Shown: in pieces, positions 56,423 through 64,000 of the stretch
How positions within the stretch are numbered: position 1 is the stretch's first letter
Layout of the letters: each line of letters opens with the position of its first letter
Program-made: the position numbers and the translations under genes
The notes under the pieces: generated by a model
What the model was told of the DNA's origin: nothing
What the model saw: only the letters and a program-made list of their open reading frames with translations
Databases searched by the model: none
IMG/VR virus record: IMGVR_UViG_3300021979_000001
Location: 393,166 to 457,165 of that record
Length of the DNA: 64,000 bases
Strand: one strand, 5' to 3'
Source: a virus
Lineage: Duplodnaviria > Heunggongvirae > Uroviricota > Caudoviricetes

Positions 56423-56719
56423 TTATCGATAAATAGTAATACCCTTGCCATTTCCGTGCCCATAACCTAATCCCATTCCGATCCCGAACCCAGAATCATA
56501 TCCATGAGCAACAGAAAAACCCTGACCAATGCCCGCCCCATCGGCATATTCATAGTTTGAGTATTCACCACTATAACTAGTGCCATCACCCTCCATAAAC
56601 GTATGATTTCTGCTACTGCCACAATAATATGGGCCATTACTATGCAAACATAAATTAGAGTTATGTAACCGTATTGTCATGGTTAAACTTTTTGTTTGAT
56701 CATCATTAATAACTGACAT
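56423..56719 (-). CDS. Gly-Xaa array peptide (diverged)
   Basis: MTIRLH-type leader; GAGIGQG...GFGIGMGLGYGHGNGKG. Confidence 0.65.
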   Translation of the reverse strand: MSVINDDQTKSLTMTIRLHNSNLCLHSNGPYYCGSSRNHTFMEGDGTSYSGEYSNYEYADGAGIGQGFSVAHGYDSGFGIGMGLGYGHGNGKGITIYR

Positions 56720-56745
56720 ATGGTTATAACTTGGTTCAATGCATA

Positions 56746-56922
56746 TTAGGGGTAACCGGCTCCGGCACCGAAATCATCACCATAACCAACACCATATCCC
56801 ACACTATAACCTTTTTCGGAACCGCACCCATCGTTGGAATTGTGACCATAGCCGAAACCCTGGTCCTCACTCATACCATAATCATACGAAAAATGGTTTA
56901 CCTTTGTTCTAAATAAGGTCAT
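56746..56922 (-). CDS. Gly-Xaa array peptide (58 aa, below ORF-track cutoff)
   Basis: Hand translation MTLFRTKVNHFSYDYGMSEDQGFGYGHNSNDGCGSEKGYSVGYGVGYGDDFGAGAGYP. Confidence 0.65.
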   Translation of the reverse strand: MTLFRTKVNHFSYDYGMSEDQGFGYGHNSNDGCGSEKGYSVGYGVGYGDDFGAGAGYP

Positions 56923-56950
56923 TTATTAAATCGGTTCATGACTGATTGTT

Positions 56951-57250
56951 TTATCTGGCATATGCAATAATACTACTACCGCAATCTTCACCATAGCCCT
57001 CACTACCCCCTAATCCAGAACTATCGCCGCATCTCATTCCTTTACCACACCCGATCCCACGAGCAATAACCATATAATATCTAAAATCACAAATTTTACT
57101 AATACCAAAACAATCTCCTTCGCATTCTCCTTCGCCGTGCCCATAATTATGAGTTTGTATATCATCACTGGGTGCGTTAACAAAATCACCAACATGATGA
57201 TGACCGTGGCTATAATTTATATTACTATATGTGGTTTCAATTGTCATCAT
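56951..57250 (-). CDS. Gly-Xaa array peptide (diverged)
   Basis: YGHGEGECEG...GIGCGKG...GYGEDCG. Confidence 0.6.
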   Translation of the reverse strand: MMTIETTYSNINYSHGHHHVGDFVNAPSDDIQTHNYGHGEGECEGDCFGISKICDFRYYMVIARGIGCGKGMRCGDSSGLGGSEGYGEDCGSSIIAYAR

Positions 57251-57330
57251 AAGCTGTAACTGACCATCTTTACATGGATTTGTTTATTTGAATAAAACAA
57301 TAAAAAGGTATAACCATTTATTTCATTATG

Positions 57331-57576
57331 TTAATCCTCGGAACCATTATTATACCCATATCCATAACCAGACCCTTTCAGGTAACCATCCTGGTTCTTA
57401 TATAATCCACCAGCCCCGGTTCCATAACCATACTCATGTAGTCCATCTACCGTAGGTTGGGTATAACCATTACCCATGCCAACGCCGCCACCATCGGCAT
57501 GTATTAATATACCATTCTCGATCTTATTCCGAATATCACACCCAATATGGTATTTTAGCATAATGCATATATACAT
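57331..57576 (-). CDS. Gly-Xaa array peptide (diverged)
   Basis: MYICIMLKYH leader; GVGMGNGY...GSGYGYGYNNG. Confidence 0.65.
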   Translation of the reverse strand: MYICIMLKYHIGCDIRNKIENGILIHADGGGVGMGNGYTQPTVDGLHEYGYGTGAGGLYKNQDGYLKGSGYGYGYNNGSED

Positions 57577-57653
57577 AATTGCATTGTCCAGTGTTAATCA
57601 TTATGATTTTAATATATATTATTCGGAACCATTAATTATTTCATCCAAATAAC

Positions 57654-57851
57654 CTAATCAAAATCACCTAATCCTGCCCCATCCCCATTATTATAACCGG
57701 CGGTGTCGTAAACTCCTTGACCAAAACCAACCCCGGATGCAATGCCCGAACCATACCCTTCACCGTCGCCGTAGTAATCATCGCGGTAAGAATGAATATC
57801 GTGAATATCACCAGAATTGGCACAAAATAGCAAACGCATTGAACTATTCAT
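57654..57851 (-). CDS. Gly-Xaa array peptide (diverged)
   Basis: MNSSMRLLFC leader; YGDGEGYGSG...GDGAGLGDFD. Confidence 0.6.
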   Translation of the reverse strand: MNSSMRLLFCANSGDIHDIHSYRDDYYGDGEGYGSGIASGVGFGQGVYDTAGYNNGDGAGLGDFD

Positions 57852-57907
57852 TTCGGTATTCAACATTGGGTTACTATACCATACCATTAGTTGATGATAC
57901 CATACCT

Positions 57908-58066
57908 TTAATCAAACCCAGACCCATGCCCATAAATGTTGCCACCGCCATAGCTGTGATCCTCTCCCCATACTATCGCCGAACGCATATCATACCCATG
58001 ATCACAACTACAACCTTCGCCTAGGTCATTATCACAGATAAGTTTGCTGGTAAACCCCCACACCAT
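57908..58066 (-). pseudogene. Degenerate array copy
   Basis: MVWGFTSKLICDNDLGEG...YGHGSGFD; the central Gly-Xaa pattern (YAFGDSMGRGS) lies in a different frame. Confidence 0.45.
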
Positions 58067-58101
58067 TTACTAATTTTATTTCCCCTGGATCATAGTAATG
58101 G

Positions 58102-58293
58102 CTAGTTTTCACTCGCCAAGTCCAGATAGCGATACCCAGACCCATCCCCGGAGCCATACCACCCCCCGTAACCATGACCATCTCCGCGACCAGCATCATC
58201 ACCATAACCTTCGCCTTCGCCAAATCTATTCTCATATTCATCGACATAATCAGTAACGTTTGTTTTATTAAAATAAAATAAAAGTATCGTCAT
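58102..58293 (-). CDS. Gly-Xaa array peptide
   Basis: MTILLFYFN leader; FGEGEGYGDDAGRGDGHGYG. Confidence 0.7.
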   Translation of the reverse strand: MTILLFYFNKTNVTDYVDEYENRFGEGEGYGDDAGRGDGHGYGGWYGSGDGSGYRYLDLASEN

Positions 58294-58294
58294 T

Positions 58295-58513
58295 TTAACA
58301 AGAACTCCCTTTCACGGAACCAGCACCATATATTGCGCCATAACTGTTTCCCCTGCTGGAAGTTCGACCATACCCAAACGTTCCTCCATTAATTTGTCCG
58401 ATGGCATCTCCTTTTCCACTACCACAAGTGTTATTAAGGTTGTCTCCGAGATTAATATTATCATACTCATATGATTGATCTGCACAATAATATAACGCAA
58501 TAGGTGTTTTCAT
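58295..58513 (-). CDS. Gly-Xaa array peptide
   Basis: MKTPIALYYC leader; Gly-periodic core. Confidence 0.65.
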   Translation of the reverse strand: MKTPIALYYCADQSYEYDNINLGDNLNNTCGSGKGDAIGQINGGTFGYGRTSSRGNSYGAIYGAGSVKGSSC

Positions 58514-62397: not shown

Positions 62398-62427
62398 AAT
62401 TCGCGCACTGGGTGAAAATAAGTTAAA

Positions 62428-62637
62428 TTATTCACACCCATTACCATCACCATGACCATAACCATCACCAGACACATAACCATGACCATAACCATCTCCA
62501 TAACCATAACCATAACCATCCCCATAACTATCACCATCGTTATCACCATAACCATGACCATAACCATCACCAGACACATAATCATCATCATCGTGTGACC
62601 AGGATTTGATATAATTTAATTTTATGGATATATTCAT
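62428..62637 (-). CDS. Gly-Xaa array peptide
   Basis: [26 protein letters not shown] leader; ends GCE. Confidence 0.82.
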   Translation of the reverse strand: MNISIKLNYIKSWSHDDDDYVSGDGYGHGYGDNDGDSYGDGYGYGYGDGYGHGYVSGDGYGHGDGNGCE

Positions 62638-62667
62638 GATACACCTCTCCGGTAACAATAATTTAAA

Positions 62668-62856
62668 TCATTCACAACCACTACCATACTCAATGCCATA
62701 ACCATTACCATCCCCATCATTATCCCCATAACCGGAGCCATTACCCTGACCATATTCATTACCATAACCGGAGCCATTACCATTCACATCACCAGACATA
62801 TAATCATCATGGTGTGACCCGTATTTGATATAATTCAAGTTTATGGATATAGTCAT
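62668..62856 (-). CDS. Gly-Xaa array peptide
   Basis: GGAG SD; MTISINLNYIKYGSHHD leader; ends GCE. Confidence 0.82.
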   Translation of the reverse strand: MTISINLNYIKYGSHHDDYMSGDVNGNGSGYGNEYGQGNGSGYGDNDGDGNGYGIEYGSGCE

Positions 62857-62886
62857 GATATGTCGCTCCGGTAAAAATAAGTTAAA

Positions 62887-62985
62887 TCATTTACAACCAC
62901 TACCATAACCATAACCATACCCATCCCCATCACCATTCACATCGCCAAACACATATTCATCATGGTGTGACATGGATATATTCAT
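62887..62985 (-). CDS. Minimal Gly-Xaa array peptide (32 aa) with in-frame leader deletion
   Basis: [32 protein letters not shown]. Confidence 0.7.
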   Translation of the reverse strand: MNISMSHHDEYVFGDVNGDGDGYGYGYGSGCK

Positions 62986-63015
62986 AATTCACGCAACGGG
63001 ATAAAATAAGTTAAA

Positions 63016-63252
63016 TCAGTCACAACCATGACCACGACCACGACCAACACCGGTGCCAGAGCCATAACCCGGACCATAACCATGACCATAGCCAGAGCCA
63101 TCACCATAACCATCTCCATCACCGTCCCCATCCCCATCATCATCGCCATAACCATCTCCATCACCTTCCCCATCACCATAACCATCACTAAACACATAAC
63201 CATCATCGTGTGACCAGGCTTTGATATAATTTAATTTTATGGATATATTCAT
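63016..63252 (-). CDS. Gly-Xaa array peptide
   Basis: MNISIKLNYIKAWSHDD leader; ends GHGCD. Confidence 0.82.
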   Translation of the reverse strand: MNISIKLNYIKAWSHDDGYVFSDGYGDGEGDGDGYGDDDGDGDGDGDGYGDGSGYGHGYGPGYGSGTGVGRGRGHGCD

Positions 63253-63282
63253 AATTGGCGCGCCGGGTGAAAATAAGTTAAC

Positions 63283-63531
63283 TCATTCACGACCACAACC
63301 ATAACCACCGCCATGACTAACACCAGAGCCAGAACCATCACCATTACTATAACCATCCCCCAAACCAGTCCCCGAACCATCCCCATTACCAGCCCCATCC
63401 CCATCACCATAACCATCCCCATTACCAGCCCCATCACCATAACCATAACCATTCCCATCCCCATCCCAATCATCATCGCCATCATGGTGTGACCAGGATT
63501 TGATATAATTTAATTTTATGGATATATTCAT
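63283..63531 (-). CDS. Gly-Xaa array peptide
   Basis: [17 protein letters not shown] leader; ends GCGRE. Confidence 0.82.
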   Translation of the reverse strand: MNISIKLNYIKSWSHHDGDDDWDGDGNGYGYGDGAGNGDGYGDGDGAGNGDGSGTGLGDGYSNGDGSGSGVSHGGGYGCGRE

Positions 63532-63561
63532 AATTCGCGCACTGGATGAAAATAAGTTAAA

Positions 63562-63828
63562 TTATTCACACCCATGACCACGACCATAACCATAACCATA
63601 ACTATCCTCAAATCCATTCCCATTCCCAAGCCCTCTCCCAAAAACATGACCGTCACCATTCCCCGAACCATACCCATTACCAGCCCCATTCCCATAATAT
63701 GAGACATAACCAGAACCAAAACCATCACCATTCCCAATACCAGAACCATTCCCATCCCCATCCCAATCATCATCGCCATCATGGTGTGACCAGGATTTGA
63801 TATAATTTAATTTTATGGATATATTCAT
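63562..63828 (-). CDS. Gly-Xaa array peptide
   Basis: [17 protein letters not shown] leader; ends GHGCE. Confidence 0.82.
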   Translation of the reverse strand: MNISIKLNYIKSWSHHDGDDDWDGDGNGSGIGNGDGFGSGYVSYYGNGAGNGYGSGNGDGHVFGRGLGNGNGFEDSYGYGYGRGHGCE

Positions 63829-63858
63829 AATTCGCGCACTGGGTGAAAATAAGTTAAA

Positions 63859-64000
63859 TTATTCACACCCACTACCATACTCAATACCAAAACCAGTCCC
63901 AAAACCAGTCCCCGAACCATCCCCATTACCAGCCCCATCCCCATCACCATCCCCATACCCATTACCGGCCCCATCACCATAACTATAATCATAACCATCC
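63859..64000 (-). CDS. Gly-Xaa array peptide (5' end outside window)
   Basis: ...DGYDYSYGDGAGNGYGDGDGDGAGNGDGSGTGFGTGFGIEYGSGCE* followed by the conserved spacer. Confidence 0.8.
   Translation of the reverse strand, partial: DGYDYSYGDGAGNGYGDGDGDGAGNGDGSGTGFGTGFGIEYGSGCE

Follow-up and report, generated by a model that had tools for sequence, protein, structure and literature searches.

The last 64,000 bases of IMG/VR virus record IMGVR_UViG_3300021979_000001 (hereafter the window) end in a tandem array of small paralogous genes whose predicted products carry glycine at alternate positions, (Gly-X)n, and this array also occupies the opposite end of the contig. Its units are most alike in the middle of the array and most diverged at both edges. 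We consider it probable, and the best explanation overall, that the array is a birth-and-death tandem family maintained by local duplication and ectopic recombination, with no polar addition of units. An initial annotation, made from the window, had instead seen a polarised age gradient in which new units arise at the transcription-proximal end and age distally, as in integrons or in arrays of clustered regularly interspaced short palindromic repeats (CRISPR). That gradient is present within the window and disappears over the array as a whole.

An array at both ends of a T4-like jumbo phage contig

The source record is a single virus contig of 457,165 bases (38% G+C), and the window is its final 64,000. 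It is a T4-like jumbo phage, as judged by its genome size, by its genes for a T4-type large terminase, portal, Gp23 capsid protein, Peptidase_S77 prohead protease, tail sheath and baseplate, by its 20 transfer RNA genes and one transfer-messenger RNA, by its CheckV rating of 100% complete, and by a terminase 58% identical to that of Agrobacterium phage Atu_ph07 and 57% identical to that of Phosso, the nearest cultured relatives by this protein.

The array comprises window positions 56423-64000 and, at the contig's opposite end, contig positions 1-21538 (21.5 kb). A profile built from 71 units matched the genome 97 times, in every case on the minus strand and within contig 19-21538 or 449606-457161. 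Over these ~29 kb (6% of the genome) we counted 103 units, all on the minus strand, of which 86 are full-length, 8 short and 9 broken; the window (56423..64000) holds the last quarter, a downstream stretch of 7.6 kb with 28 units and one more that is cut by the contig end. Position 64000 is the end of the contig, not the start of the array, and both contig ends fall within the array: the contig starts 12 nucleotides (nt) past a stop codon and ends inside a unit body. The leader family (the leader being the N-terminal part of a unit) found at the window's end resumes across the contig break, the best paralogue of one window unit lies there, and the break itself falls within the array's most homogeneous part. 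Because T4-like genomes are circularly permuted and the leader family is common to both sides, the simplest reading is that the two ends would form one ~29-kb array, which the assembler would have split where repetition is highest.

Megablast found no match for the array among 50,697 phage records, no array unit was found in Atu_ph07 or Phosso, and degenerate leader patterns matched neither metagenome nor viral contigs (0 in each), collections from which records of this genome or of near ones may be missing. An array of ~100 tandem paralogues of a single small gene is not known to us from any other phage.

Similarity rises towards the middle of the array

To measure divergence we used a 102-nt leader block (45 nt upstream and 57 nt coding) and scored its identity to the best paralogue, for which shuffled sequences give a baseline of 0.62 ± 0.03. 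In the window part (26 units), this identity follows unit order closely (Spearman -0.77, p = 4e-6), as does terminal branch length (rho 0.82, p = 3e-7), in agreement with the gradient first described. Across all 94 ATG-led units of the array, taken in transcription order, the correlation is lost (rho -0.07, p = 0.51). Identity is instead fitted by a quadratic function of position (R2 0.60, compared with 0.004 for a linear one), with medians of 0.70 for the first 18 units, 0.88 for the middle 63 and 0.65 for the last 13, and it declines with distance from the array centre (rho -0.66, p = 5e-13). A FastTree phylogeny of the leader blocks gives the same picture: terminal branch length is unrelated to order (rho 0.09, p = 0.39) and increases with distance from the centre (rho 0.61, p = 5e-11), its medians in sequence along the array being 0.41, 0.065, 0.073 and 0.76. 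The gradient in the window is one flank of a hump with a young middle and old edges.

The location proposed for the birth of new units, the transcription-proximal end of the window, is the middle of the array. In the contig-start part alone, units become younger toward the transcription-distal end (rho +0.51, p = 8e-6), opposite to the window, so that a polar model fails even if the contig ends are left unjoined. The array's upstream edge (contig 15-21.5 kb) is old, with a median identity of 0.70.

Duplication, exchange and decay of units

Close relatives in the array tend to be neighbours. Twelve of the 28 cherries in the tree join units no more than two apart, compared with 4% at random, and relatedness correlates with distance in a Mantel test (rho -0.26, p = 0.001). 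Forty-four units have a paralogue at 0.85 identity or above; the partner lies within two units in 24 of them and more than ten units away in 8. At contig 8.2-10 kb two leader families alternate three times, forming a two-unit higher-order repeat, and two segments that span unit junctions, 352 and 330 nt long, occur again at distances of 9.4 and 8.2 kb. Parts of units are also shared over long distances: an exact core stretch of at least 12 amino acids (aa) is common to 32 unit pairs, 19 of which differ in leader family, and an identical 26-aa C-terminus occurs in one unit at contig 9.8 kb and another at window 63.6 kb. Tail types are likewise found with differing leaders. Defective units occur in every zone (2 of 20 proximal, 11 of 68 middle and 4 of 15 distal). 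Birth and death with pseudogenes, as the initial annotation had proposed, is supported by the short and broken copies among the 103 units and by the frequency with which sister units are neighbours.

Blocks of one or two units duplicate locally, repeats of glycine codons permit distant units to exchange pieces, thereby shuffling leader, core and tail, and copies decay through frameshifts and stops at any position in the array. We interpret the young or homogenised middle and the old edges as the outcome of unequal crossing-over, in which edge units would join in least; edge units of tandem arrays such as satellite DNA escape homogenisation in this way. We favour this combination of local unequal crossing-over, ectopic exchange in glycine repeats and decay because relatedness is local, cores are shared at a distance, defects are scattered and the genome has no reverse transcriptase or tyrosine recombinase match. 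The array offers a natural experiment on module shuffling driven by low-complexity coding repeats.

Several points weigh against this account. The join between the contig ends is one that we infer, and IMG/VR lists the record as linear, without end repeats; the junction also misses at least one spacer, one leader and part of a core. Leader-block identity dates the last duplication or conversion and is not a strict measure of age, and the distal units, instead of being older copies, may form a separate sub-family. Near the break, moreover, units could have been collapsed or mis-ordered in the assembly of such repeats from short reads.

Taken further, this last concern would make unit order, copy number and mosaicism partly artefacts of assembly, and the position of the break in the most homogeneous part of the array, together with a linear IMG/VR record that CheckV rates as complete, would fit such a view. 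We nevertheless judge it improbable: only 2 self-matches of at least 200 nt reach 88% identity (the longest is 352 nt at 94%), most of the shared stretches are much shorter than a read, and frames, starts and stops are intact in 86 of the 103 units. Least probable is a directional mechanism that adds units at the transcription-proximal end, which can point to the steady rise in divergence from 64 kb to 56.4 kb in the window but is already contradicted by the whole-array analysis, given the reversed trend in the 21.5 kb upstream, the old upstream edge, the 8 of 44 young units whose best paralogue is more than ten units off, the shuffling of modules among distant units, and the lack of any match in the 457-kb genome to PF00078 (reverse transcriptase) or PF00589 (tyrosine recombinase), Cas proteins not having been searched for.

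The initial annotation had suggested looking for a reverse transcriptase or recombinase beyond 64 kb, where none was found with these two models, and had named as decisive against it a lack of correlation between position and divergence over the whole array; unit phylogeny indeed shows no monotonic link to position there. The claim of a CRISPR-like polar gradient arose from viewing one flank of the array only and should be dropped.

Zones of the array in the window

The zones that had been outlined in the window are, with one exception, confirmed, and all lie on the minus strand. Eight units with an MNISIKLNYIK-type leader and 30-nt spacers (61870..63828) are the youngest part visible in the window, in line with the near-identical leaders and spacers reported for 61.8-64 kb; their leader blocks match the best paralogue at 0.79-0.98 identity, and one of the eight, at 62887-62985, encodes just 32 aa and has lost an internal part of its leader. 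Sub-type leaders mark the five units at 60439..61828, where such sub-types had been noted (60.4-61.8 kb): two end in NACNNET, two have HY..PN.P.KVY and one has MNISIKLNYIKYW. The three adjacent units at 59850..60359 are broken, as claimed. One has GTG for ATG and a 1-nt frameshift in an AT run, another has in-frame TGA and TAG codons, and the remaining one is frameshifted at an ATATAT run.

Beyond these, twelve diverged distal units (56423..59812) have less glycine, wider spacers and a faint leader pattern, and their leader-block identity (0.61-0.68) is that of the shuffle baseline, consistent with the faint resemblance described for 56.4-59.8 kb. The exception is 57908-58066, which had been thought partly out of frame; it is an open frame of 52 aa without a family-type leader, and a shifted unit could not be demonstrated. 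In the part of the array at the contig start, an unrelated Cys-rich gene of 128 aa (contig 20774-21160, minus strand) stands between the first unit (contig 21296-21538) and the remaining array.

Predicted products of the units

A unit product has a median of 82 residues. It starts with a nine-residue N-terminal tag, M-[N/K/V]-x-[S/P]-I-x-[L/Q]-x-[Y/F], followed by a variable linker of ~8 residues, an acidic low-complexity body in which Asp, Tyr, Ser, Asn or His stand between the alternating glycines, and one of a few tail types. The family has at least seven leader types. Glycine makes up 38% of the body and stands at alternate positions (P = 0.75), followed by Asp (12%), Tyr (11%), Ser (9%), Asn (7%) and His (5%); the body's codons have 68% T at position 3 and are G-rich at positions 1 and 2, with all four Gly codons in use. 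The median net charge of a unit is -8, and 20 of 75 units have a Cys within their last 14 residues.

We compared non-synonymous with synonymous differences (pN/pS) in 21 disjoint pairs of close paralogues, a small number. For codons 2-10, the tag, pN/pS is 0.39 (p = 0.007), and for codons 11-17, the linker, it is 2.39 (p = 0.13), the two regions differing significantly (Fisher p = 0.007). By this measure the tag is under purifying selection, so the units are presumably translated and their tag matters. The ongoing diversifying selection suggested in the initial annotation is not established by the linker value. Forty-one array units carry the tag, and among open frames of at least 50 aa the genome has it nowhere else. 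An AlphaFold2 model of one unit with 71 paralogues has a mean predicted local distance difference test (pLDDT) score of 40.4, with residues 1-10 alone reaching ~67.

Spacers between units fall into length classes of 20 nt, about 30 nt and 48-62 nt, and a T-run followed by AC..GTG.G recurs ~10-30 nt before most unit ATGs, across leader families. We counted 59 sigma-70-like promoters (46.8 ± 6.3 in shuffles) and 7 terminator-like sites (6.4 ± 2.6 in shuffles), neither count being informative, and found the exact T4 late-promoter octamer upstream of only 2 of 93 units. Long Met/Val-rich and Trp-rich frames on the minus strand overlap the units in both parts of the array (window 56423-64000 and contig 1-21538); we rejected them as genes, as they are shadows of the Gly-Asp-Tyr codon repeats.

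A search with one unit against a set of 5.8 billion proteins gave 344 candidates, none at E ≤ 0.001, and searches of Pfam, PHROGs and NCBIfam with 5-12 units gave low-complexity matches only, all below cut-offs. The composition of the units probably defeats homology searches of this kind. The 71-unit alignment has no column stretch conserved enough for a locus search, and an Atlas look-up returned only viral clusters without names.

Related genes in other phages

A codon pattern for GDGYGDGDG matched at least 120 viral stretches, and 80 loci were fetched. In a crude screen, 54 of the 80 loci have at least one short (Gly-X)n frame, although some of these, in GC-rich loci, are shadow frames; three or more such frames are present in only 2 of 80. 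At 15 loci, where 82 of 155 frames were scanned, the neighbours of Gly-X genes include Erf, RecT, SSB, exonucleases, HNH proteins, repressors and integrases, and no radical S-adenosylmethionine (SAM) enzyme is among those named. The units thus appear to be of a kind of small (Gly-X)n phage protein that is widespread yet undescribed and that elsewhere is encoded singly, among early and recombination genes. Since copies elsewhere are single and three or more are rare, this phage would represent an extreme expansion of a widespread small protein. A full-text literature search found no description of these (Gly-X)n proteins, and for tests of function the array supplies numerous variants of a single, uncharacterised type of phage protein.

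Other arrangements of such genes were also seen. In a 97-kb viral contig with 52% G+C, about five small Gly-X genes are interspersed with genes for two amidoligases and two amidotransferase-like proteins (L058:9511-16098, plus strand); an amidoligase is found in 2 of 50 records with small Gly-X genes. At IMG/VR loci L100, L130, L151, L150 and L114, some (Gly-X)n proteins share an N-terminal part of ~50 residues with a Gly-Ala-Cys motif and have no short tag. In a further viral contig, two frames made up almost entirely of Ala-Gly dipeptide repeats adjoin a Gly-Asp-Tyr gene (L147:7089-7577, minus strand).

Candidate functions

Our tentative preference is that the units encode an unmodified, disordered, polyanionic protein for host interaction or counter-defence, diversified by an arms race. 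It counts against this choice that it draws only on composition (charge -8), a predicted lack of fold and the neighbours of such genes in other phages.

A bolder proposal, which we regard as possible though doubtful, is that the array is a self-shuffling library of ~100 tagged acidic (Gly-X)n peptides, a built-in generator of peptide diversity whose products would be matured by enzymes or act as decoys against defence. Recombination in the glycine-codon repeats would reassort leader, core and tail modules; the peptides might then be matured by the products of adjacent radical SAM, B12-radical SAM and hydroxylase-like genes, or be delivered as decoys against host defences. If this were true, a class of small phage proteins that is widespread but undescribed would have undergone extreme expansion in the array.

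It is unlikely, in our estimate, that the units are precursors of the ribosomally synthesised and post-translationally modified peptide (RiPP) type, in which the tag would be a leader for the adjacent radical SAM enzyme and the Gly-X body a modified core, with a B12-radical SAM methylase and a hydroxylase-like protein nearby possibly acting as well. The enzyme in question has an N-terminal twitch domain (54706..56100, minus strand; NF033640, E = 1e-126), lies directly downstream of the array in the same orientation and begins ~320 nt past the last unit. A conserved short N-terminus joined to a hypervariable body would suit a precursor, as would the Cys near the end of some units and, on another viral contig, the small Gly-X genes between amidoligase and amidotransferase genes. 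Within 9 kb and on the same strand there are also a B12-radical SAM protein weakly resembling RiPP C-methylases and a weak match to an Asp/Asn hydroxylase (E = 0.0017, below cut-off).

However, the association does not hold elsewhere. Among 37 viral loci encoding homologues of this enzyme (45-73% identity), a Gly-rich small gene is found upstream in none (0 of 37, with 2.7-10 kb examined), and a single Gly-rich frame lies downstream in one. These homologues adjoin other radical SAM genes and genes of nucleotide metabolism; at the one locus that was read, the neighbours are, by sequence inspection, thymidylate-synthase-like and PP-loop-like. In the phage itself, ten NF033640 paralogues score above cut-off, with three weaker matches besides, and just one of the ten adjoins the array. 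The small Gly-X genes at the 15 scanned loci likewise have no radical SAM neighbour among the 82 of 155 frames scanned, and amidoligase genes accompany such genes in only 2 of the 50 records. The precursor model TIGR04260 reached at best 13.6 bits (cut-off 31) and the maturase model TIGR04261 13.3 bits (cut-off 310). A predicted complex of the radical SAM enzyme with a unit (score 0.01, mark 0.32) is evidence neither way. We rate maturation by this enzyme low because its linkage to the array is not conserved in relatives and the RiPP models are unmatched.

Less likely again is an analogy with T4, by which the tag would be a capsid-targeting sequence and the peptides would enter the prohead, be trimmed by its protease and be injected with the DNA. 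As described in PMC9026906 and PMC3012670, T-even internal proteins are a polymorphic set with only an N-terminal capsid-targeting sequence of 10-19 residues in common, which the prohead protease cuts off after [L/I]-x-E. The present phage, itself T4-like, encodes a Gp23 capsid protein and a gp21-type Peptidase_S77 prohead protease (E = 2e-25), and the T4 internal proteins IPII and IPIII begin with a ten-residue tag loosely like one leader family here. The phage's own capsid protein does have an L-x-E site at the expected place, where the T4 protein is cleaved, whereas in the units [L/I]-x-E shows no enrichment within the first 25 residues (9 of 94 units, compared with 11.4 ± 3.0 in shuffles). 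Moreover, the tag is private to the 41 array units and hence no shared address, and the Gly-X genes of other phages are situated among early, not head, genes.

Adjacent and other repeated genes

Next to the radical SAM gene lies a gene for a DUF488-N3a protein (54308..54706, minus strand). The NF033640 paralogues are located at contig 127, 134-136, 145, 204, 276-281, 308 and 448 kb, and the window has further radical SAM genes at 31123-32244, 35149-36651 and 47477-49000.

Two other sets of tandem paralogues were observed in the window, both on the minus strand. Five genes at 48997-54363 (358, 320, 326, 337 and 437 aa) have a common C-terminal region; the 326-aa protein is predicted to consist entirely of helical repeats (pLDDT 79), and its armadillo-like matches are only weak (best E = 0.024). 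Three small hydrophobic paralogues at 45240-46558 (159, 146 and 141 aa; 29-34% identical) are flanked by two further small hydrophobic frames of 115 and 109 aa. Elsewhere in the genome, at contig 46.9-50.0 kb (plus strand; L003:6881-10039), the large subunit of ribonucleotide reductase is split between neighbouring frames of 579 and 424 aa, which correspond to consecutive portions of the family profile.

Comparison with known systems

With CRISPR and integron arrays, the array shares short co-oriented units and spacers in discrete length classes. It differs from them in having no polarity over its whole length and no integrase or reverse transcriptase match, and its units are paralogous genes. 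Poxvirus gene accordions, which consist of near-identical copies of one gene and expand and contract quickly, offer another example of viral tandem expansion, plausibly favoured by pressure from the host. The term accordion, which the initial annotation had used, does not fit in this sense: leader-block identity peaks at 0.98 and long self-matches at 88% or more number just two, even the most similar pairs have differences all along the body, and the family is old enough for seven or more leader types to exist.

Prochlorosins, and Gly-rich-repeat precursors with their radical SAM maturase (TIGR04260/TIGR04261), are multi-precursor RiPP families, and the array resembles them in its many paralogues, in the conserved leader and hypervariable body of its units and in having a radical SAM gene close by. 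Here, however, neither NCBIfam model is reached, the enzyme is NF033640 and its linkage is not conserved. The T-even internal proteins (IPI-III, Alt) are also fast-changing or unrelated small proteins of T4-like phages that keep a short N-terminal tag; they are a few unrelated genes, as opposed to ~100 tandem copies of one family, and IPII and IPIII translate as charged folded proteins, as opposed to acidic Gly-X bodies with no [L/I]-x-E enrichment and a tag absent from other proteins.

The closest parallel to the pattern of divergence is with tandem arrays shaped by unequal crossing-over. Satellite higher-order repeats and ribosomal DNA are homogenised by this process and have young cores and diverged edges; the array described here has the same hump of similarity, a two-unit repeat, nearest relatives that are mostly adjacent and decayed edges. 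It departs from them in that its units are protein-coding and that their bodies stay diverse while their leaders homogenise.

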